Positions 970-47,863 are shown, numbered from the stretch's first letter. The stretch is 64,000 nucleotides of DNA from a phage (GCA_017676145.1 GCA_017676145.1_3628.1); one strand, 5' to 3'. Notes: generated by a model not told the origin, from the sequence alone. Made by a program: numbers and translations.

Positions 970-1248
970 ATGAGCTGCGAAAAATCTTTTTTCATCATCA
1001 TTTACGGCAAGGATAACTGCCCACATTGTGTAAGAGCAAAAGAATTTGCAGTCAGCAAAGGCATACCTTTCGTATACAAGACGCTAGGTGAGGGATACAC
1101 AAAAGAAGAGCTTATCGAGAAGTGTAGCCCATTTGTTCCCAGAACGTTGCCTCAGATCTTCTTGGAAAGCAACCTTGACAGTATCCACATAGGTGGTGCT
1201 GACGATTTCATCTCTTTTGTTAAGAATGGTTTTGGAGAGAAAAAGTGA
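970..1248 (+). CDS. glutaredoxin-like redoxin (NrdH/NrdC-like), 92 aa
   Basis: C-P-H-C active-site motif near N-terminus (YGKDNCPHCVRAK), size and fold pattern of glutaredoxin; stop overlaps nrdD start (GTGA). Confidence 0.7.
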   Translation: MSCEKSFFIIIYGKDNCPHCVRAKEFAVSKGIPFVYKTLGEGYTKEELIEKCSPFVPRTLPQIFLESNLDSIHIGGADDFISFVKNGFGEKK

Positions 1249-2105
1249 AAGTTGTAAAACGGGACGGTAGAGAAGAGTTTTATAACGGAATTAAGGTGAT
1301 CAAGGCGGCAGAGTCCGCCTTACTTGAGTCTGGACATACTGAAGAAGAAGCTTACCGGATTGCCTGTGCGGTTAATGAAGTTGTTGCCAACAATCTGCCA
1401 ACCGACCAGTGCACGATCTCTGTAAAAAATATCCATATCCTTGTTGAAGATGCTCTTATGGATATGGGTTTAAAATGTGCAGCCAGAGAATACATCCAGT
1501 ATAGACAGACAAGAGATAATAACAGAGAGGCAGGTGGAAAACTGCTTGCAGATATTAGTGGCTTCTTGGATCGTACTTGTGATGAATTTACAAAAGAAAA
1601 CGCAAATAAGCCTACTAATCATGTACACACTCATCGTGACCTGCTTGCAGGCATCCTTAGCAAACACCTTGCATCAACACAGATCCTGCCAGATCGTGTC
1701 TCAGAAGAGCACAACAAGGGCTTCATCCATGTGCATGATCTTGACTACTTGATCAGCCCGTTAACAAACTGTTGTTTGGTGAATTATCCGGATATGCTGG
1801 AAAACGGATTCAACATTGGCAACGCCCATGTCAGTAAGCCGAAGTCAATAGGGGTTGCAACAACAATCCTTAGCCAAATCTCTAGTGCAGTAGCTAGTGC
1901 TCAATATGGTGGTCAGACCATGAGCCATATTGATCATTATCTGGCACAGTATGCTGAAGCAACCTACGAGAAGAACCTTAAATTTTGTCAGGAACATTGG
2001 TTGCCAGATGCTGAGACTGTTGCAATGCAAATGACAGATAAAGACGTGTTTGATAGTATGCAAACTTTGCTCTACCAAATCAATACGTTAACTTCTGTCA
2101 ACGGT
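1245..2105 (+). CDS. nrdD: anaerobic ribonucleoside-triphosphate reductase NrdD, exon 1 (ATP-cone and N-terminal half)
   Basis: N-terminal ATP-cone (MKVVKRDGREEFYNGIKV). ORF stops at 2106-2108 exactly where the NrdD-like sequence is interrupted; C-terminal half resumes in the same frame at 2904. Confidence 0.8.
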
Positions 2106-2903
2106 TAACAAACTGGCCGTTGTAAAACTCTCCTAACCTCATAAGAGGGGTCGGTAAATCCGGCTAACGGGGAACGCTAAGGCGAAAGCTATGCCAATCC
2201 CGTGACTAGTTCTTACAGGAGTTGGAACGGTTGTAACGACTAACGAAAGGCAGAGATGCTTGACAAACATTTCTGAACCGAGTAGTGTAGGGGTTAGTTG
2301 AAATACTAACTTCGAAAGGGAGAGACTCTATGAAAAAGATCATTCTTAATGGTGAAGAATCGAACTACGTGATTGATGAGGTGGGAAACGTATACGGAAA
2401 ACGTGGAATGCTGCACCCCATATTGTGGGGAGGTTATGGAAAAGGTAACAAGCATGTTAAACGCCGCTATATGTATTCTTTCAACCACAAAGGTAAGAAG
2501 ATTCGAATCCAAACTTCAAGGGTTGTTGCCTTGTATTGTTTGCCAGATGTCCCAGAAGACCCTGAAAACTGGGAAGTGAATCATAAAGATGGCAATACAT
2601 TGAATGATCATCCGTCTAACCTAGAGTGGGTTTTGCCGGAAGATAATAAGAGACATGCTTTCCGAACAGGGCTTTGTCCAGGCAAGTGCTACAGGAAAGT
2701 GCAGGCATACCAAGGGAAAACCTTGGTGGGTGAATATCCTTCACTCTATGCCTGTGCAAAAGCCTTAAATTTGAACGTAGGGAACGTCCATAGGGCTATC
2801 GAAGGAAATGCCGAAGGTAAGCATCTCACAATAAAGGGTTATTATCTTATTGAAGTAGAGTAAGAGATAGTCTGGCCCTGTGGAAACACAGGGGTGGAGA
2901 CAG
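2106..2903 (+). mobile_element. group I self-splicing intron in nrdD carrying an HNH homing endonuclease ORF
   Basis: 798 nt (multiple of 3) between two NrdD halves. Exon 1 ends in U (caacggt) that can pair with downstream ccgttg (P1/IGS-like). Intron ends in G. GACUA / UAGUC P7-like elements flank the ORF. Predicted junction gives ...TSVNG/QTPFITL. Confidence 0.6.
2330..2863 (+). CDS. intron-encoded HNH homing endonuclease, 177 aa
   Basis: HNH motif VNHKDGNTLNDHPSNLEWV; located entirely inside the nrdD intervening sequence; ATG preceded by purine-rich SD. Confidence 0.75.
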   Translation: MKKIILNGEESNYVIDEVGNVYGKRGMLHPILWGGYGKGNKHVKRRYMYSFNHKGKKIRIQTSRVVALYCLPDVPEDPENWEVNHKDGNTLNDHPSNLEWVLPEDNKRHAFRTGLCPGKCYRKVQAYQGKTLVGEYPSLYACAKALNLNVGNVHRAIEGNAEGKHLTIKGYYLIEVE

Positions 2904-4163
2904 CAGACTCCATTCATCACATTAAGTTTAGGGCTAGATACCTCGGTCTTTGGTAGAATGATTACCAAAAACTACTTGAAAGTTCACAAAATGGGTCTTG
3001 GTGAAGAACGGATCACACCTGTGTTCCCTAAAGTGCTGTTCTTCTTAGAGGAGGGTGTCAACATGAACCCTGGGGATCCTAACTACGATTTGAAACGATT
3101 GGCTCTAGAATGTTCTGCAGAGCGGATTTATCCTGACTTTGTTTCTGTTCCGCTGAATCGTAAAGTGACAGGTTCAACAGACGGCAAAGTAACAAGCATG
3201 GGATGTAGGTCGTTCCTTGGCAAATATGTTACACCGGAGGGTGATGAAAAATACCTTGGCAGATTCAACTTGGGTGTTGTTAGCCTTAACCTACCAATGA
3301 TTGCGGCAAAAGCTAAGACGGAAGGTATTGATTTCTTTGCAGTTCTTGACGAATACTTGGATCTTGCATACGAGGCTCACCTTGTAAGGGTTAACCGTCT
3401 AAAAGGAACAAAGGCAGGGCAGAACCCTATCATGTGGTGTGAAGGAGCTCTTGCTCGCCTGGATCCTGAAGAGAGTATCGATAAACTCTTCTATGACGGG
3501 TACGCTTCCATCAGTATTGGGTATATTGGTGTGTATGAAACCTGTCAGATTTTGGGCAGAGAGGGTGACAAGGCTTTAGCTCTTGGAATCCTTCAGCACA
3601 TGAAAGATGCTTGTGAGCGATACAAGAAGGAAAGTGGACTAGCATTTAGCTTGTACGGCACACCTTCTGAGAGTTTATGCTATAAAGCTGCAACCTGTCT
3701 GGATCGTGAATACCCAGAAGTGTTGAAGCACGAGCATGAATACCTCACCAACAGTTTCCATCAGCCAGTATGGATCAATAGCTCGCCTTTTGATAAGTGG
3801 AAGTATGAGGAAGGTTTTGCTATGATCTCCTCTGGTGGTAACATTGGGTACATAGAGACACCAAATCTGAAAAACAACTTAGATGCTTTGGAAGCTCTTG
3901 TTGATTTCGGATATAAACACATTATGTATTTTGGTATTAACCAGCCTGTGGATAAATGTCTTAAGTGTGGATTCTCTGGTGAGTTCAGTGCAACAGCTAA
4001 AGGCTTTGTATGCCCAGAGTGTGGAAACCATGAAGAGGGAACGATCAGTGTGATTAGACGTGTATCCGGGTATCTATCCAGTCCAAACTCCCGTCCTTAC
4101 AATAAAGGTAAGCAAGCGGAGGTTATAGAACGGGTTAAGCACTACGGAAGTTGTGGTTGCTGA
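2904..4163 (+). CDS. nrdD: anaerobic ribonucleoside-triphosphate reductase NrdD, exon 2 (C-terminal half with glycyl-radical domain)
   Basis: C-terminal zinc ribbon (CLKCG...CPECG) and glycyl-radical motif RVSGYL; in frame with exon 1 after removal of 2106-2903. Confidence 0.8.
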   Translation, partial: QTPFITLSLGLDTSVFGRMITKNYLKVHKMGLGEERITPVFPKVLFFLEEGVNMNPGDPNYDLKRLALECSAERIYPDFVSVPLNRKVTGSTDGKVTSMGCRSFLGKYVTPEGDEKYLGRFNLGVVSLNLPMIAAKAKTEGIDFFAVLDEYLDLAYEAHLVRVNRLKGTKAGQNPIMWCEGALARLDPEESIDKLFYDGYASISIGYIGVYETCQILGREGDKALALGILQHMKDACERYKKESGLAFSLYGTPSESLCYKAATCLDREYPEVLKHEHEYLTNSFHQPVWINSSPFDKWKYEEGFAMISSGGNIGYIETPNLKNNLDALEALVDFGYKHIMYFGINQPVDKCLKCGFSGEFSATAKGFVCPECGNHEEGTISVIRRVSGYLSSPNSRPYNKGKQAEVIERVKHYGSCGC

Positions 4164-40811: not shown

Positions 40812-41183
40812 TCAATGACTATTTTCAATCATCCACACAGGGTCTAGGTAAATCTGTTGGCGTTTTGCCCAATGACAAACTTCATTGTACATCTGAATCT
40901 CTTTGTCCGTCAGTTCACGAATAGGCTCATCTATACCCTCATTTTTGTGGTAATCCCATTCGGCATCGATTTCCCACAACCATGACTTACGATCTTCACG
41001 TTTACGCACACAGAAGTCCCCAGGACGGCCTGCCAGTGCATTTAAGAACTCGTTCTCCGCTCGCTCCTGGAGAATACTGAGGAGCAAAACGTTGGAGCAC
41101 GACCGTAAGATATGCTTCAGCTCACAATCATCAATCTCAACTTCAATACGTTGCTTGACTGTGTGGGTACCTTTTACTAACAT
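40812..41183 (-). CDS. hypothetical protein (123 aa)
   Basis: ATG at M10 of track ORF 40812..41210 preceded by aggagg SD. Confidence 0.5.
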   Translation of the reverse strand: MLVKGTHTVKQRIEVEIDDCELKHILRSCSNVLLLSILQERAENEFLNALAGRPGDFCVRKREDRKSWLWEIDAEWDYHKNEGIDEPIRELTDKEIQMYNEVCHWAKRQQIYLDPVWMIENSH

Positions 41184-41193
41184 TCTGCCTCCT

Positions 41194-41388
41194 CTAGACA
41201 AACTCTGCAAGGGTTGTGTTGTTCACTGCACCGCAGTAGATGGAATACCCCAACCCATTATGGTGCAGAAACCACGGCACACCTTGGTCATCCTTCACGT
41301 ATACATCTCCATTTTCCGTAAAGGGCCAATACTCCTCTCCGATGGTAAAATACCTACTCATACCTTCAGCCAGATACTTTACTTTCAT
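41194..41388 (-). CDS. small protein (64 aa), member of tandem paralog trio
   Basis: YW.F.ENGDVYVKDDQGVPWFLHHNG.GY.IY pattern shared with 41385 and 41609 ORFs. Confidence 0.5.
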   Translation of the reverse strand: MKVKYLAEGMSRYFTIGEEYWPFTENGDVYVKDDQGVPWFLHHNGLGYSIYCGAVNNTTLAEFV

Positions 41389-41612
41389 AGATCCTCTTCA
41401 ACAGCTACAAACTTGGCAAGTAGGGTGGTTCCATAGATATGATACTCACCATTTGCCAGATGGGAGATAAACCAGGCAACACCTTCCTCGTCTTCGATCA
41501 TATTGTTCCTGCGATCCTTATCGTAGTAAACCTTGTAGACCTTACCTTCTTCAAAGAATGACAGGTCTGTCATCTTTTCTTCTACAAACGTCGCTTTAAC
41601 CAAAGTTGTCAT
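41385..41612 (-). CDS. small protein (75 aa), member of tandem paralog trio
   Basis: KVYKVYYDKD...EGVAWFISHLANGEYHIY; start overlaps upstream stop. Confidence 0.5.
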   Translation of the reverse strand: MTTLVKATFVEEKMTDLSFFEEGKVYKVYYDKDRRNNMIEDEEGVAWFISHLANGEYHIYGTTLLAKFVAVEEDL

Positions 41613-41920
41613 TGATCTGCCTCCTTCTTGTTGAGCCGGAACACTGCAATAATAGCATTTCCAAGATGCAGTGTCAAATCATTTCCCAGATACCATAACA
41701 TTCCACGGTCATCTTTAATGAAAGGGTAACAATCCGGTGCCTTCCAGACATTATACACTTTGCCGACCTGAAAGAAATCAGGCCCTGTTGGAATTTTAGT
41801 ACCTGGCCACACTTGAGACACCTGAACGCACTCTACCTGCATAATAACAGGAATAGTCATGGAGGTAAATGTTTTTGTCGGTTCTACTACCATAAAAGTC
41901 TCCTCTCTATCTAACAACAC
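41609..41920 (-). CDS. small protein (103 aa), member of tandem paralog trio
   Basis: KVYNVWKAPD...RGMLWYLGNDLTLHL. Confidence 0.5.
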   Translation of the reverse strand: MLLDREETFMVVEPTKTFTSMTIPVIMQVECVQVSQVWPGTKIPTGPDFFQVGKVYNVWKAPDCYPFIKDDRGMLWYLGNDLTLHLGNAIIAVFRLNKKEADQ

Positions 41921-41952
41921 TTCCGTGTGTTGATAGTTTACATTAGTGACAA

Positions 41953-42609
41953 TCAGCTTACCGAGAAATTCTGCTCGGACATACTCTTCGGGGACCTCTT
42001 CCCTTTGTTTTTACACCTTGCGGTTTTAGGTATCCCAGTGTACCATGCCCAACTCCTCCCAGTCAAGATATTGGAAATGGTTATTTGATTAACACCGAAA
42101 AGATCTGCTATAGCTTGCTGTGACATACCTGTTTTGGAAAGCTTTAATATTTCGTCAACATCTCTCTCTTTAAGTTTTGCACAGTATGATCTTTCCCCTC
42201 TTGTTTTACAGTAATCGTAGTCCACATCTTGGGCATTTTTTGAAGGCGAGGCCCATTCAAGGTTATCAGCAGCATTGTTTAGACGATTATGGTCTTTATG
42301 ATTAATCGGCACATAATCCAGCCCTGCTGCCTTACACTCTTCTACAAGCTCTTTTGAGGGAGGCTCTAGAAAGGTCTCGGCAATTAACCTGTGAAGCAAT
42401 TCCGATCTTCCATCCACATTTACTTGAATGTAACCGCTACTGTCTACGCTACCTTTTAAAATCCTGTCAGGGACAGCTTTGAAAGTAACTTTACCTGTTT
42501 GGTTACTGTACTTTCTCAGGTAAGACAGCCTTTTAATCCTTCCTTTGCTGCTAACTTCATAGTCGGCCTCCTTGCCAACCAGTTTTCTCCATTCCTCCAT
42601 AGCAAACAT
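41953..42609 (-). CDS. free-standing HNH homing endonuclease (NUMOD4-like N-terminus, HNH core, C-terminal HTH)
   Basis: EEWRKLVGKEADYEVSSKGRIKR (NUMOD4-like), INHKDHNRLNNAADNLEW (HNH), GMSQQAIADLFGVNQITISNIL (HTH); located 12 nt downstream of DNA polymerase exon 2. Confidence 0.75.
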   Translation of the reverse strand: MFAMEEWRKLVGKEADYEVSSKGRIKRLSYLRKYSNQTGKVTFKAVPDRILKGSVDSSGYIQVNVDGRSELLHRLIAETFLEPPSKELVEECKAAGLDYVPINHKDHNRLNNAADNLEWASPSKNAQDVDYDYCKTRGERSYCAKLKERDVDEILKLSKTGMSQQAIADLFGVNQITISNILTGRSWAWYTGIPKTARCKNKGKRSPKSMSEQNFSVS

Positions 42610-42620
42610 CTCTTATCAGA

Positions 42621-42974
42621 TCAATGGCAACTACCCCAATTAGCCCCACACAAGTATTCACCTGTGATCTGGAACGGAACGCCCATCATTTTAGAAGCTT
42701 GCCAGAAGCAATGTACCACCATTTCGCCCACAGGGCTCCAGATAAGTTCAAGCTTTCCGTCCTCGTTCAAGATAGGATCGTATACCGTATTTCCATCCTT
42801 GTCAACCACTTCGTTTCCGTCCTCATCCTTGCGTGCCTTTTTGTACTTATGACCGTCGAACACATGAAGTTTAGCCTCTTGCTGGGCTTTAAATGTTTCC
42901 AGCTCTTCAATTGTGTCGAAGGTGTATACAGTTTTATACTTAGGTGTGTCAGGTACTTGAAGTTGGTACTCATC
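42621..42974 (-). CDS. DNA polymerase (family A), exon 2 (C-terminal 117 aa)
   Basis: Begins DEYQLQV (completing motif C HDE with H from exon 1) and ends ...GANWGSCH, matching the conserved C-terminal His of T7-type polymerases. Confidence 0.6.
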   Translation of the reverse strand, partial: DEYQLQVPDTPKYKTVYTFDTIEELETFKAQQEAKLHVFDGHKYKKARKDEDGNEVVDKDGNTVYDPILNEDGKLELIWSPVGEMVVHCFWQASKMMGVPFQITGEYLCGANWGSCH

Positions 42975-43302
42975 CAATAGTTCAGGTAGGTCGTTAAGCT
43001 ACCCCGCACCATTACGTGCATAGCCATACAGTTTCCCGTATGGATCGGACTATCTCACTGCCTTGTCACCAAGGCACCTCTCATTTCGACCGCACTTGCT
43101 GGCCTACTCTACTCGCTTCTTCACCCCAAACTGTGTTGGAGCTATGCTTTCGATAGTCTCTGAACGTTCATCCTCTCGGATGCTTCGCTGCGGATTAGCA
43201 TATTGAGCTTTTACCATGGTTAGGTGTAAAAGTCAACTTAGCCTTCCCGTCAATTAAAGAGGTTTTCGACGTGCATCACTGCACGAAGCCACAATGTTAT
43301 TT
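42975..43302 (-). mobile_element. ORF-less group I intron interrupting DNA polymerase motif C
   Basis: 328 nt between H and DE codons of motif C; exon 1 ends in U, intron ends in G; P7-like pairing AGACUAU / AUAGUC present; in-frame stop 1 codon into intron. Confidence 0.55.
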
Positions 43303-45726
43303 ATGGTAATAAATAATCCGACGAACACCCTCATCATACCATCCACGCTTCACCAGCTGGTGGTGCATGAGGATTCCCACCAAGTCGCACAACGAGGCAC
43401 CGCCATTTTGCTGATATGCATTAAGCAAAGAGTGTTTAGAGCGGGTCCAAATGGCATGACCGTCAAAAGAGTAGATGAATTTCTTACCTGTTGCTTCCCA
43501 GAATTTCTCCAGATCCTCTTTACGCCCCTTAAGACCTGGGTTGGCATCCCAGAGAGCATCGATTACTCTCTGCCCCAGCTCTGGAGAGATATCCAGCATA
43601 TCTGCAACTTTATCTTTTTGTGCCCCGTACATAACCCCATACGTGACAGGCTTACCATCGTTACGAGACACCTCCCTGCCTGCTACTTTTGTATATGCCT
43701 CAGCATTGTTTTGGTGCGCATCTCCGTTACTTACAACATCATAGTACAGACCGTTGTCGAACTCAAAGGCACCCCAAGCCCCGATAAGCTGCTCTAAGTT
43801 GGACCCGTCAATACCGATCTCAAAGTATCCGGGAGGAACACCCCACAGACTACGCATCTCTTTACCCATAACCACTTTAGGAGATGGTTTAGGCATGTTT
43901 GCACAAATGCTGTGTTTCTGTCTGGAAGTGTTTGTTAATCCAGAACTTTTAGCAGGAAGCTTATGGTCAATCTTCAAACGTGGATGATTAAGAAGACCAG
44001 TATCAACCTTATCCTCCTTGATTGGATCAAGGACCGATCTACGGTTTCGCAAGGATAACCACAAGACGATATCTTTAGCCATCTCTCCGTTCAACTTTTC
44101 AAGATTCGGACATAGGTGTCCAAACGTATCTTTCAGTTGCGGAGAAGTAATAAGCGCTCTGGCTTTTCTACGTATCTTCCCAAACACTTCCTTTTTAATC
44201 CTTTCTGAGTTAGGGAAGCTTCGGAACTTGTGCACGGTTGTCTGAAACTTAGCATCAGTTTTGTTCCAGAAGTTTATAATTAGGTCACAATACTCTGACT
44301 CTAAAAGCTCGTCCATATATGCATATACTCGTGCATCAACATCAGCATCAGGCAGAGCTTTCTTCTTGCTGTCTTTAGTTACATCCTTAGTTCTCCACAT
44401 TGTTGGGAGCCAACCAGCACTAATCAGGTATCGCTTAATGTCGTCCTGATTGCTGATTTTCATAGGTATCTTGCAGTCAGGCATTCGCTTCTGCTGTAGG
44501 TCACTTATTGCCTGATCCATTAGCTCTTTAGGTAAAGGGTGTGGTGTAGAAGTTCCTTTGATATACCCCCTCAAGAAATCAGCCATCTTATCTGGGTCTT
44601 TACAGCCCATCTCTTCACACCATTTTATCCCCATTTTGCTGACATCCCCTGCAGAGGTAAATGCTCGCTTAGGAGGGGCTTTGAACTCTAAAGCGCTCAT
44701 GTCCACAGGATAGCCAAGCTTGTCTTTTAACCATTTCCAACCATTATTGGAGATTGTCCCATCCTGGTTAAACGGCTTTTCAGGGAACTTAGGCCGCTGA
44801 GACATTGATAACTCTTTTAAAGGAAGTTGTGGTTCAACACGATCAGCGATCTCTTTCATCCACGCATCGCAGCGGTCACGTAAAGCAATAGCCCCATCTA
44901 TGTCGAAATACACACCCTGTCGAGCCTGCAGCTCCATCAGGAAATGCTGCAGCATGCCTCGGCGTAATGCATTCTTCCAGGTAATCTTCTTGAATCCTTT
45001 AGGCTTCTCTTTGGCAGGGTCATACATAAAGTTCTGCATGTCAGATTTGCCGTAGAATACACCTTTTGATTCCGCTACCAACTCTTTCCAGAGCAACTCC
45101 TGGATGATAACGTCCTCGAACACACGATCCACATATTTCCACAGTGGAAGCTCACGCCAGTCATCGATTTGAACTTTCTGGTTACCAAGGGCATAGCCCC
45201 ATGCCATAAGGCCATGAGGCCCAACAGGTTGCATTTTCTTGGTAACTGGATTGAATACTGCGTCCGGACAACCTTTTGGCAAAGGGCGGTCAGGCCACAA
45301 GATTCGGCTCATAGCTAACGTATCAAACAGATTAACCTGGTGGTCGTTGATAGTTCCCATGCATTTAGGGTCACGGAACATATCAAAATGAATACCAGAT
45401 AATCTCTCCATCAGCATAAAGTCATAACTGTAGCAGTTATGGCAGTTCAAAGCTGTTGGTGACCAGTCGGAATTGCCTGTAAGCCAACCTTCCAACTCCG
45501 AAAAATCTGCTATGCGGACTTCAAAATCTTTATAAAGAGTTTTCTTTGCTAGAATAAAGTTCTTAGCCTTCTCTACATCCTCTTCAGAGTAGTGTGTGCG
45601 GTCATTTAGAGGAAGGAACAGCATAAAACGGTTCTTATTCAGCTCTTTAAACAAACCGCAGTGATAATAAAGATCTGGATCTTCCAGCAAGCCCGAGGCC
45701 TCCAGATCGAAAGACCACATACTCAT
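43303..45726 (-). CDS. DNA polymerase (family A, T7-like, with 3'-5' exonuclease domain), exon 1
   Basis: Exo I motif FDLEASG; motif A-like GIDGSNLEQ; motif B RNDGKPVTYGVMYGAQ; ORF terminates right after ...IIYYH, immediately before motif C acidic residues. Confidence 0.8.
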
Positions 45727-45784: not shown

Positions 45785-47863
45785 TTAAAAAGGTGTTTCG
45801 TCGTCTTCAAAACCAGGAACGTGGTTAGAGGACGGATCATCATACTGAAGGTCTTCCTGTGTGTCAACAGGGTTAACAGTAGGAGTTATAACCTTATCAG
45901 CCACAACCTTGCCAACAGGTGTTTCTACAACTGCATGCTCCTGATCCTCAAACATAGCTTGAGGTCTCCAAACAACCTCTCCACCTTCCCCGTCTGTAAA
46001 CATCTGCATTTCTTTATCCCAATACCAATTGCTGGCATCGTGGAACTTGCCTGTGTGAGGATCCATAACTAAAGTGTCCGCAATACCTAACGTTTTTGCT
46101 GGGCGGTTTTTAAGACCTACTAGACGGACACGTCCACGGGAACGATCCACCATCTCTTCTGCCTCTACCCCAACAACTACCCAGCTAAGTTGCTCCAATC
46201 CGGCACTACCACGAAGGTTCTCTTTTCGTACAGGGTACCAGAAAGGCAACGGATTCCCATCCTTATCCTTAGGAGGTACAATCTCTGTGCGTTTCAGGTG
46301 GGCGATCACCAGGATAAACACATTAAACTGCTTACAGAACGCAGCTAGTTGAGTCATAGCCATGTCAAGCTCTTTGCGCTCATCCTTAACATTAAGCCCT
46401 GAAATCACCATAGACAAGTGATCCAGCACAATGTAACGGCAGTGATACAGGCACACCATTTGTTTAAGCTTAGTGATCAGCTCATCCACAGGGATGGAGC
46501 CGAAATGCTTGAACACTTTAATTTTTCCTGCCTTGGCCCAAGATTGATGAATCTCAGCGTGCTCCTGATCGGTCAGGAACTGACTGGGGTCTTCAACAAA
46601 CTCTTTAACATCAAATCCCAGCTGGTTAGCGTATAGAGAGTTGATTGCTTCCTCAGGATCCTCTTCAAGGTGAATCAGGCACAGGCGATCATCCTCTTCA
46701 TAGTCATCAGCTTTAGGGCATGTTGGATCCATCAAGTATCTTGCAATACAGTGTTCCAGCTTCTTGGCTACAGTTGTTTTACCACCGCCAGATGGGCCTG
46801 TCAGCATCATCAAGGTGCCTTTGTGGAGCCCTTTCAGCATCTTCTGCAATTTAGGGAACTCCGCACTGATATCTACGCCATTGGAAGTCTTCTTACGAAG
46901 AGACTCAATGGAGAAGTCTTCTAAATCAGATACAGCATCAGGCACATATTTGACTGGGTGACGGAACATGTTGACAATATCTTCCAGCTTTTTAGCCTTC
47001 AGCATGTCACGAATATCTTTTACACCATCAGGGTCGTTTACCTCACCTGGATATTCCACGTGGTAAACGTTATCAGCCATCAAAAATGCTGCGATATTAT
47101 GTGTGGCCTCAACACCTTTGATAACGTGTTTTTGCTTCTCTACCTCGTTAGCTGCATCGTTGTCCATTGCAAGGACCACTGTTCCGTAGCTACGGATAAA
47201 TTTCTCATTGTTCGCAAAAGTGTCTACGGCGTTTGCACACCCGCAGTTAATTCCAACAAAAGGCAGGCAGGGTTTTCCTGCCAGATCACCACCATTGATA
47301 ACTGCATCGATCCCATCCTGAACTTCTTTAGCCCACTGCTTCACCTTTGCTGGGGCTTTAGCATTGGTGAGAATCCCTTTTACTTGTATCTGATATGCAG
47401 CTTGCCATGCTGCAATAACATCACCCTCCCCCTCGCAAACGTTAATCTGTTTACGGTTGTTGGAGGATGCACACAGCTTTTGACCAAACATCTGAGAGTT
47501 GGCCTTTACTATGCCAACAACTGAGAAATGGCCCCTTTGCTCTTTAGGGATTGTCCAGTCGCGCTTTTTAAAGCCAGATAGATTACCGTAGCGGTCGTAA
47601 TATGGGAAATATGTTGCAGTGACCGTTACCCCATCTTCTTGAGACAATGCTGATCGCACACCGAAGTATTGTGCAGCCATCAGTCCGATATTTTGTTGTG
47701 GAACAGGGACAATTTTAGTATTTTCTAAAACAGTCTCTACAGTTTCGACCTCTTTTTCATCACGATAGTCTCGTTTCACACTCCCCCCACTTTTATATTT
47801 GGTTGCTTTCGGGTTTGGCTCACCGAAACGGTTGTATGCAGATGCCATGAATTTACTGCCCAT
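45785..47863 (-). CDS. bifunctional DNA primase / replicative helicase (TOPRIM + DnaB-like)
   Basis: TOPRIM acidic motifs (CEGEGD, DNDAAN), Walker A GPSGGGKT, Walker B-like IVLDHL; 692 aa. Confidence 0.8.
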   Translation of the reverse strand: MGSKFMASAYNRFGEPNPKATKYKSGGSVKRDYRDEKEVETVETVLENTKIVPVPQQNIGLMAAQYFGVRSALSQEDGVTVTATYFPYYDRYGNLSGFKKRDWTIPKEQRGHFSVVGIVKANSQMFGQKLCASSNNRKQINVCEGEGDVIAAWQAAYQIQVKGILTNAKAPAKVKQWAKEVQDGIDAVINGGDLAGKPCLPFVGINCGCANAVDTFANNEKFIRSYGTVVLAMDNDAANEVEKQKHVIKGVEATHNIAAFLMADNVYHVEYPGEVNDPDGVKDIRDMLKAKKLEDIVNMFRHPVKYVPDAVSDLEDFSIESLRKKTSNGVDISAEFPKLQKMLKGLHKGTLMMLTGPSGGGKTTVAKKLEHCIARYLMDPTCPKADDYEEDDRLCLIHLEEDPEEAINSLYANQLGFDVKEFVEDPSQFLTDQEHAEIHQSWAKAGKIKVFKHFGSIPVDELITKLKQMVCLYHCRYIVLDHLSMVISGLNVKDERKELDMAMTQLAAFCKQFNVFILVIAHLKRTEIVPPKDKDGNPLPFWYPVRKENLRGSAGLEQLSWVVVGVEAEEMVDRSRGRVRLVGLKNRPAKTLGIADTLVMDPHTGKFHDASNWYWDKEMQMFTDGEGGEVVWRPQAMFEDQEHAVVETPVGKVVADKVITPTVNPVDTQEDLQYDDPSSNHVPGFEDDETPF

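Follow-up and report, generated by a model that had tools for sequence, protein, structure and literature searches.

Why is a coliphage's DNA polymerase gene interrupted inside an active-site motif by a group I intron without an endonuclease gene, and followed at once by a gene for an HNH endonuclease, and do the two elements move together? The question is raised by positions 41,953 to 45,726 of a 64,000-nucleotide stretch of phage DNA (GCA_017676145.1), here called the window. The locus is 93–98% identical to rV5-like coliphages (Vequintavirus: FV3, SYGMH1, HMD-6, phita32, and others), a likeness that identifies the window as a stretch of such a phage. An earlier note on this DNA had read the arrangement as collaborative homing. 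The analysis reported here favors a different answer, to which we give a probability of roughly 0.55: the 3′ part of the polymerase gene probably houses two independent selfish elements, namely the intron at motif C and an HNH cassette that targets the polymerase tail, with the intron standing outside the mechanism of the cassette. The parts of the locus are listed below (nt, nucleotides; aa, amino acids; ORF, open reading frame).

43303..45726, minus strand: DNA polymerase exon 1, 808 codons, Met to His808, with the exonuclease and the palm and fingers up to the motif C His
42975..43302, minus strand: ORF-less group I intron, subgroup IA-like, 328 nt; intron position i is window position 43303-i
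43169..43182, minus strand: tip of intron helix P6a (CAUCC-GAGA-GGAUG), the position of the HNH ORF in copies of the FV3/FFH2 type
42621..42974, minus strand: DNA polymerase exon 2, 117 codons plus stop, opening with DEYQLQV (motif C Asp-Glu) and closing with ...GANWGSCH-stop
42621..42645, minus strand: recoded polymerase tail (GGCTAATTGGGGTAGTTGCCATTGA), supplied by the cassette; from an alignment of 12 loci and breakpoint mapping
42601..42620, minus strand: spacer from the polymerase stop to the probable HNH start, with a Shine-Dalgarno-like motif AAGAG at 42614..42610 and a first ATG at 42609
41953..42600, minus strand: free-standing HNH homing endonuclease; counted from the second ATG it has 215 aa (starting at 42609 would make it 218 aa)
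41943..41954, minus strand: scar (GATTGTCACTAA), the 12 nt that once ended the polymerase gene, now moved to right behind the HNH gene and overlapping its TGA stop

Footprints of the cassette

The HNH gene is not merely intergenic. The earlier note had placed it simply downstream of the polymerase, a description that has to be given up, since the cassette to which it belongs starts within the last 25 nt of the polymerase gene. Relatives without the HNH gene read ...TGTGG TCGTAACTGGGGCGATTGTCACTAA TGTAAAC..., encoding ...GRNWGDCH-stop. The HNH-positive genomes read ...TGTGG GGCTAATTGGGGTAGTTGCCATTGA, followed by an 11-nt spacer, the HNH ORF ending in ...AGCT, and then GATTGTCACTAA TGTAAAC.... 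The recoded tail GGCTAATTGGGGTAGTTGCCATTGA differs from TCGTAACTGGGGCGATTGTCACTAA at 10 of 25 nt, changing R to A, D to S, and the stop codon from TAA to TGA; it keeps the W-x-x-x-H-stop ending, as does the polymerase tail of T3 (GANWKECH-stop). The HNH-less tail contains ...GGTCGTAACTGGGGCGATTGTCACTAA...; that of FV3 or SYGMH1 contains ...TGTGGTCGTAACTGGGGCGATTGTCACTAATG.... Taken together, the scar and the recoded tail imply that the junction with the DNA of the recipient was made 12 nt short of where the polymerase ORF ends. The scar records a comparatively recent invasion of Vequintavirus by the cassette, and the recoding would alter any recognition site that spans the insertion point.

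Where the replacement tail came from can be narrowed down to some extent. By hand count, the last 27 nt of the tail match the lineage of the metagenomic contigs L017 and L020 at 22 of 27 positions vs. 17 of 27 for the local HNH-less alleles, and the HNH proteins of that lineage are 53–57% identical to that of the window. No scar or recoded tail turned up in other lineages that possess this HNH family; the gene is intergenic there, and even the best match to the 12 nt is no better than chance would give. The phage collection holds no HNH-less close relative of the L017/L020 lineage, the nearest being the Vequintaviruses themselves at about 71% identity.

The flanks of the cassette are short. 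Between 42677 and 42596 the window does not differ from phita32; the haplotype switches from FV3-like to HNH-positive between 42678 and 42645, within 33 nt of the cassette, and switches back between 41953 and 41925, within 28 nt of it, after which FV3 is followed without mismatch over the next ~880 nt. On the other side, it is SYGMH1, and likewise HMD-6, that the window follows through the opening ~100 nt of exon 2, the intron (99.4%), and the end of exon 1 (97.7%). As a group, the HNH-positive genomes share the cassette and at most ~30 nt on each side, and their intron, exon 2, and downstream gene follow the local HNH-less relatives. The cassette is 95–96% identical between genomes, as against only 89–93% for the flanks of the same genomes. 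It stands beside the 328-nt intron in the window and beside a 276-nt intron of the rV5 type in phita32, 241Ecol014PP, and contig L024, and the window-type ORF-less intron is found without the cassette in SYGMH1, HMD-6, and JLBYU08. Judged from these alleles, the intron and the HNH cassette assort independently.

The notion that intron and endonuclease are inherited as one unit does not agree with these data, as the tract in common stops no more than 33 nt upstream of the cassette, whose junction is 354 nt away from the intron site. None of the four cassette copies provides an example of joint transfer of intron and cassette. The transfer that produced the window genome seems not to have included the intron, and a break at the intron site is an improbable origin of the cassette transfer, because such a break would drag along the intron and the whole of exon 2. 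More broadly, window 41076..43600 (minus strand) is a fine-scale mosaic with breakpoints near the intron site and at the cassette, a pattern that fits nuclease-associated exchange boundaries.

The intron and the polymerase that it interrupts

The earlier note described a family A polymerase split at motif C by a group I intron with no ORF, and in this it proved right. The minus-strand gene order is a DnaB-type primase/helicase gene (47863..45785), the polymerase gene, the HNH gene, and small conserved genes. As an unspliced ORF, exon 1 extends over 45726..43297 (minus strand) and ends with ...RRIIYYH-K-stop, the AAA and TAA codons already being intron; the TTG listed as a start of exon 2 (42977-42975) is the final 3 nt of the intron, and a search for a Shine-Dalgarno sequence 5′ of exon 2 found none. 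With U43303 joined to G42974, 328 nt drop out and a protein of 925 aa results, with a predicted spliced junction of ...TATTACCAT/GATGAGTAC... (the slash marks the junction). The Pfam DNA_pol_A match covers residues 620-742 with exon 1 alone and 620-822 once the exons are joined. Alignment of the spliced protein with T7 DNA polymerase runs across the junction (iiyyHDEyql vs. mawvHDEiqv, 652-658; E 3.6e-16), and the HDE restored by the splice corresponds to T7 residues 653-655.

The intronless phages ECP32 and Murica possess a continuous 925-aa polymerase that is collinear with the joined exons. Together with NHEP1 they read ...TATTACCAT/GA(T/C)GA... with the ORF unbroken at the predicted junction, the motif C DNA being CAT/GACGAATATCAG in ECP32 and CAT/GATGAGTACCAA in Murica. 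Because these relatives are continuous precisely at that point, the boundaries proposed earlier (328 nt, exon ending in U, intron ending in G) are exact. Among 28 Vequintavirus rows, 13 are intronless and one is intein-only vs. 13 with the intron. An unspliced messenger would stop two codons into the intron and yield a product without the motif C aspartate, so RNA splicing is probably needed for the 925-aa polymerase.

The intron itself is well defined. Rfam family RF00028 matches 43312..43025 over the full-length model with 75.2 bits (E 2.8e-17, against a gathering score of 50), nothing else in the 64-kb window matches at gathering level, and this covariance-model result is in line with what had been supposed. 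The 5′ exon ends with U43303, and the terminal G42975 of the intron is the omega-G. In P1, exon CCAU and intron A1A2 are paired with 43294..43289, and the 5′ splice site is marked by the U43303-G wobble, which does not vary among 13 distinct homologs. For P10, exon-2 GAUG can pair with intron C7A8U9U10; this pairing fits the observation that the Asp codon is GAT in every intron-bearing allele, while it is GAC in several intronless ones. The P7-like pair AGACUAU/AUAGUC pointed out earlier is the real P7, formed by GACUA (43158..43154) and UAGUC (43052..43048) and displaying a compensatory change from U-A to C-G. GNRA tetraloops cap L2, L6a, L8, and L9, and a search for an endonuclease ORF inside the intron found none, the largest internal ORF being 37 aa.

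The structure tested on an alignment of 14 sequences comprised P1-P6, P6a, P7 (pseudoknot), P7.2, P8, P9, P9.1, and P9.2, that is, 66 pairs in 13 helices. In the 14 homologs 96.8% of the cells are paired, and 31 of the 66 pairs are compensatory, the P3/P7 pseudoknot included. In controls in which the 3′ partners were slid by 1–3 columns, 33–40% of the cells were paired and 2–7 pairs were doubly changed. None of 500 shuffles reached the observed value on four of five measures; on the fifth, further standard pair types, 480 of the 500 did. These results show that the intron is a conserved, structured ribozyme. A 68-nt insert lies between P7 and P3′, where subgroup IA has P7.1 and P7.2. P7.2 (intron 199-202/212-215) is 100% paired with two compensatory pairs; P7.1 is discerned by eye only, the alignment being out of register there. 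It is because of the extra helices between P7 and P3′ that the intron is labeled subgroup IA-like, subgroup IA being the usual type in phage group I introns. Self-splicing that yields an active polymerase would be expected from this structure and from the behavior of the homologous intron of phage CB7.

Homologous introns were gathered at the identical polymerase site from phages and metagenomic contigs, and their cargo varies. ORF-less introns have 328–329 nt in SYGMH1, HMD-6, and JLBYU08, 276 nt in rV5, phita32, and 241Ecol014PP (the rV5 type), and 312–316 nt in the metagenomic contigs L020 and L022. The introns of FV3 and FFH2 (842–843 nt) have a 168-aa HNH ORF in place of the P6a tip, and that of FV3 (842 nt) can be derived from the window intron by putting 528 nt in the place of intron nt 121-134. 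Phage W70 (L015 3287..4058) has an HNH-type ORF in P6, PVP-SE1 (L013 3280..4198) a LAGLIDADG gene after the 5′ strand of P7, and CB7 (L014 4473..5159) an HNH ORF in P5. Rfam scores lie above the gathering threshold also for the introns of rV5, JLBYU08, phita32, L020, and PVP-SE1; for the ORF-bearing introns of FV3, FFH2, W70, and CB7 no match reaches that level, and homology was established by alignment instead. An origin of the ORF-less intron by deletion from the FV3 type was considered and rejected: the P6a tip of the window intron is a clean GNRA hairpin devoid of ORF remnants, and the same hairpin is kept in the distant L020 intron.

The intron occupies the site between the motif C His and Asp, 881/882 in the numbering of E. 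coli Pol I, where polymerase introns were reported in the T7-like phages ΦI and W31 (PMC3428280). The second intron of CB7, a Pectobacterium phage (Certrevirus, Vequintavirinae), lies at the identical YYH/DE site and is homologous in P1-P3 and P3′-P9.2. Splicing of this CB7 intron, which lies between CB7_51 and CB7_49 and contains CB7_50, was seen by reverse transcription polymerase chain reaction (PMC7344957). It has an HNH ORF, unlike that of the window, and CB7 has another intron further upstream. Its free-standing HNH gene CB7_48 starts 2 nt after the polymerase gene, and the product is 27% identical to the window HNH.

GenBank records often miss the intron, giving two "DNA polymerase" coding sequences or a truncated polymerase followed by hypothetical proteins (e.g., L001, L003, L009, L010). 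In rV5 (L006, DQ832317, 979..3930) the annotation gives a 775-aa polymerase and, after it, ORF227-225 as "hypothetical proteins." In the rV5 genome paper the polymerase likewise has 775 aa, and the terminase gene is the only one for which introns are mentioned; a literature search found no description of a polymerase intron in the rV5 genus itself. Two observations on the relatives may be added. Some carry an in-frame insert of ~969 nt (~323 aa) in polymerase exon 1, probably an intein, giving ORFs of 1132–1259 aa (L002 1574..4972, L011 877..4623, L024 40..3438, L016 2198..5977); some genomes with the insert have the intron as well (241Ecol014PP, L024), and others lack it (NHEP1, L016). Furthermore, 16–17 GenBank records of "Campylobacter phage" (C12, A147, A135, A140, C5, C9, and others; host C. 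jejuni) are ~93% identical to the rV5-like phages here, which suggests mislabeled or contaminant genomes.

The HNH gene and its family

The earlier note took the HNH neighbor to be a complete gene, and it is one, with NUMOD4 (33.8 bits, cut-off 23.4) and HNH_3 (28.2 bits, cut-off 24.8) domains in Pfam; the stated gap of 12 nt needs correcting. The distance from the polymerase stop is 11 nt to the first ATG and 20 nt to the second (42600), and the latter is probably the true start, the first ATG being unused: 241Ecol014PP has ATA at the position of the first ATG, the database cluster P0001 is 215 aa long, I-HmuI begins at an equivalent MEW, and AAGAG stands 9 nt upstream. A C-terminal helix-turn-helix matches HTH_23 with 21.1 bits, under its cut-off, and the protein as a whole matches the HNH endonucleases of PHROG 59 (E 3e-37). 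I-HmuI (1U3E) is its only relative in the PDB, a weak one (E 0.0096), with the stretch NHKDHNRLNNAADNLEW aligned to DHKDGNKDNNLSTNLRW. I-HmuI, the nicking endonuclease of the SPO1 polymerase intron, has the same order of NUMOD4-type, HNH, and C-terminal helix-turn-helix parts, and both proteins are associated with family A polymerase genes; it is encoded in an intron at polymerase site 674 (PMC3428280), whereas the window HNH is free-standing. Promoter and terminator scans around the locus gave counts at shuffle expectation.

At >95% identity the gene occurs in three phage genomes only, namely the window, phita32, and 241Ecol014PP, and the other rV5-like genomes are without it, so that its presence or absence is polymorphic at a fixed site among >100 close relatives. 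The ratio of nonsynonymous to synonymous substitution rates (dN/dS) among the three intact copies is 0.04–0.16, which indicates purifying selection on the protein. The fourth copy (L024 4083..4538) has the same junction and, over 721 nt with a single gap, 90% identity; it is frameshifted and truncated to 151 aa, and it looks as a decaying homing endonuclease gene should. Searches of IMG/VR and the JGI metagenomes with exact junction 30-mers and 26-mers found no further cassette.

In ten further contigs, which represent eight distinct loci (L016, L017, L018/19, L020/21, L022, L023, L025, L026), more distant homologs (43–57% identity) come straight after a family A polymerase gene, and half of these polymerase genes are uninterrupted. 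With the window group counted, six polymerase genes in the family have the motif C intron and six are uninterrupted. The two states may be found close together: L017, HNH-positive and intronless, and L020, HNH-positive and intron-bearing, are close relatives, and the intron-site sequence of L017 equals that of the HNH-less intronless Vequintaviruses, i.e., it is unrecoded. In the T7-like contig L026, the HNH gene stands ahead of a gp5.9 homolog, in the slot that gene 5.3 has in T3. The family is invariably found right behind a family A polymerase gene, and the phages that keep it there include rV5-like myoviruses, relatives of Vibrio phage PWH3a-P1, and T7-like genomes. A literature search found no description of this polymerase-3′-end HNH family or of its tail-replacing cassette. 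Tentatively, and at somewhat worse than even odds, one may see here an undescribed lineage of free-standing homing endonucleases specialized for the 3′ end of family A polymerase genes (...W-x-x-x-H-stop), its position kept across phages, which would travel as a cassette with a replacement C-terminus and mobilize the intron in trans. If so, the locus would offer a natural system for measuring collaborative vs. trans homing with every allele state, those on hand being intronless, two ORF-less intron types, HNH in the intron, and cassette present or absent.

Nuclease genes are found elsewhere around this polymerase gene and in the window. A different free-standing HNH gene stands directly upstream of the polymerase start in L005 1574..2308 (FFH2), L014 888..1454 (CB7_54), and L022 994..1716, so the polymerase gene can be bracketed by nucleases at both ends. 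In the window, nrdD (1245..4163, plus strand) is also split into exon 1 (1245..2108) and exon 2 (2880..4163), which match positions 1-154 and 155-562 of the Pfam NRDD profile. An HNH_3 ORF (2330..2863) lies between them, and a weak Rfam group I match is seen at 2748..2893 (25 bits, E 0.028). This interruption looks like an HNH-bearing group I intron, in keeping with the earlier note's mention of an nrdD intron, the weak score probably arising from the ORF breaking the model.

Movement of the two elements and rival explanations

Under the interpretation that we favor, the HNH protein would, in co-infections, nick or cut relatives that lack the cassette, at the 3′ end of the polymerase gene or close beside it, and repair from the cassette-bearing genome would copy the cassette in, a case of the "intronless homing" of a free-standing endonuclease. 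The cassette would bring its own recoded polymerase C-terminus (...NWGSCH-stop), and the polymerase would stay intact. The target is placed at the polymerase tail because the cassette swaps the last 25 nt, leaves a 12-nt scar, has short flanks, accompanies two types of intron, and has homologs that follow polymerase genes with and without the intron, the intron site of L017 being unrecoded. The intron may at most hitchhike into intronless recipients by co-conversion ("trans homing"), which is conceivable because 354 nt lies inside the range of co-conversion in T4, reported to be up to 2 kb (PMC2790892).

Several points weigh against this interpretation. The target site in the tail is one that we infer from recombination footprints only. 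The recoded tail could be co-converted donor sequence from a divergent lineage rather than an adaptation for immunity, and later recombination could have erased a longer original conversion tract, leaving the short flanks. All four exact cassette copies, on which any association of cassette and intron state rests, adjoin an intron, though ~50% of the genus is intronless; this is what a collaborative model predicts, but the four represent only about two independent lineages. In addition, I-HmuI and I-HmuII are reported to cleave DNA both with and without the intron (PMC3428280), which makes arguments from self-immunity, such as that drawn from the unrecoded intron site of L017, weak.

Known systems differ in how closely they resemble the locus. 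The best mechanistic analog for any interaction of intron and HNH in the window is the trans homing of the T4 nrdB intron by MobE, a free-standing HNH enzyme that nicks a neighboring gene away from the intron site, so that an immobile nearby intron is dragged by co-conversion (PMC2790892). The T4 nrdB intron keeps a defunct endonuclease gene and its co-inheritance was seen in crosses (PMC2790892), whereas the one transfer that can be reconstructed for the window left the intron out. Zeng, Bonocora, and Shub (2009) described collaborative homing for the psbA intron of cyanophage S-PM2, which has no ORF, and F-CphI, which targets the intron insertion site; the two move together. In the window, by contrast, the cassette leaves its footprints at the 3′ end of the gene and assorts independently of the intron; the nucleases also belong to different families, F-CphI being Endo VII-like (PMC6083498). 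The intron site itself (Pol I 881, the HDE His) and an HNH gene directly after the polymerase gene are shared with the ΦI/W31/T3 system. The introns of ΦI and W31 carry an HNH gene in P6a, unlike the ORF-less intron of the window, and the host polymerase there is a T7-type podovirus enzyme vs. a 925-aa myovirus enzyme here. Bonocora and Shub are said to have found in 2009 that the free-standing nuclease of T3 gene 5.3, which lies directly after the polymerase gene, cuts at the ΦI/W31 intron site.

That last system is among the points in favor of collaborative homing in the strict sense, according to which the HNH protein cuts the intronless motif C site, the intron protects its own genome, and intron and HNH gene are copied together. 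The layout indeed matches published cases of an ORF-less intron with an adjoining free-standing endonuclease (reviewed in PMC3984707; PMC10448857), to which extent the earlier note was right; the intron site is that of ΦI and W31 (PMC3428280), and the location of all four cassette copies beside an intron in a genus where suitable intronless recipients are common speaks for it as well. The proposed pairing of intron and nuclease fares worse. The cassette goes with two intron variants and at most ~30 nt of shared flank, exon 2 and the intron follow other lineages, the scar and the recoded tail mark the polymerase end as the place of insertion, and the same ORF-less intron is also met in genomes that lack the cassette. 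Homologs follow uninterrupted polymerase genes in six other loci, with the intron site of L017 unrecoded, and the similarity of the window HNH to T3 gp5.3 in a BLASTP search is confined to the HNH motif and not significant (E 0.24). On this sequence evidence the collaborative model is disfavored, and we regard it as improbable. Much the same locus might arise through turnover of homing endonuclease genes (HEGs), if an FV3-type intron lost or never gained its HNH gene and a new free-standing one arrived, with no interplay between them and with homing perhaps ceased in the genus. Barth et al. propose such an origin for collaborative-looking loci, and in their "HEG island" picture nuclease genes cluster around polymerase genes and mark exchange boundaries (PMC10448857). 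The locus fits both ideas: it is a hotspot, with HNH genes in P6, LAGLIDADG in the P7.1/7.2 region, HNH genes upstream, and an intein-like insert among relatives, and the cassette is rare, with one of its copies frameshifted and no others found in IMG/VR or the JGI metagenomes. We nevertheless consider this account unlikely, in view of the strong purifying selection on the three intact copies (dN/dS 0.04–0.16), the precise-junction transfer between backgrounds, which argues for recent activity, and the P6a tip, a clean conserved hairpin (also in L020) and not a remnant of the FV3 ORF.

A further alternative concerns the polymerase itself, which might be made without splicing as two polypeptides (808–809 aa and about 118 aa), the intervening RNA being a dead intron relic. 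Non-spliced split genes caused by endonuclease insertion are known in phages, Aeh1 NrdA among them (cited in PMC7344957), and many GenBank records annotate two separate polymerase coding sequences. The ribozyme core, however, is undamaged and has been preserved through compensatory changes, the CB7 homolog of the intron does splice, the break falls inside the HDE active-site motif, and exon 2 lacks a Shine-Dalgarno sequence and has as its sole start a TTG inside the intron. Such a split polymerase is accordingly very hard to credit.

The interpretation as two independent elements involves no new principle, since introns at this site, HNH genes in or beside polymerase genes, and free-standing nucleases that aid ORF-less or defunct introns all have known precedents; a cassette that carries a replacement gene end is a modestly novel detail. 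The analysis of footprints illustrates that collaboration should not be read from a layout alone, however collaborative it looks. In the rV5-like phages, which are widely used as candidates for therapy and biocontrol, the polymerase is misannotated in many GenBank records, and the correct product would be the spliced 925-aa enzyme. In general, the locus is a dense natural experiment in the turnover of selfish elements at one essential gene, with at least four cargo states at one intron site, and as every allele is represented among close relatives that can be cultured on E. coli, simple crosses should allow the rival models to be tested directly.

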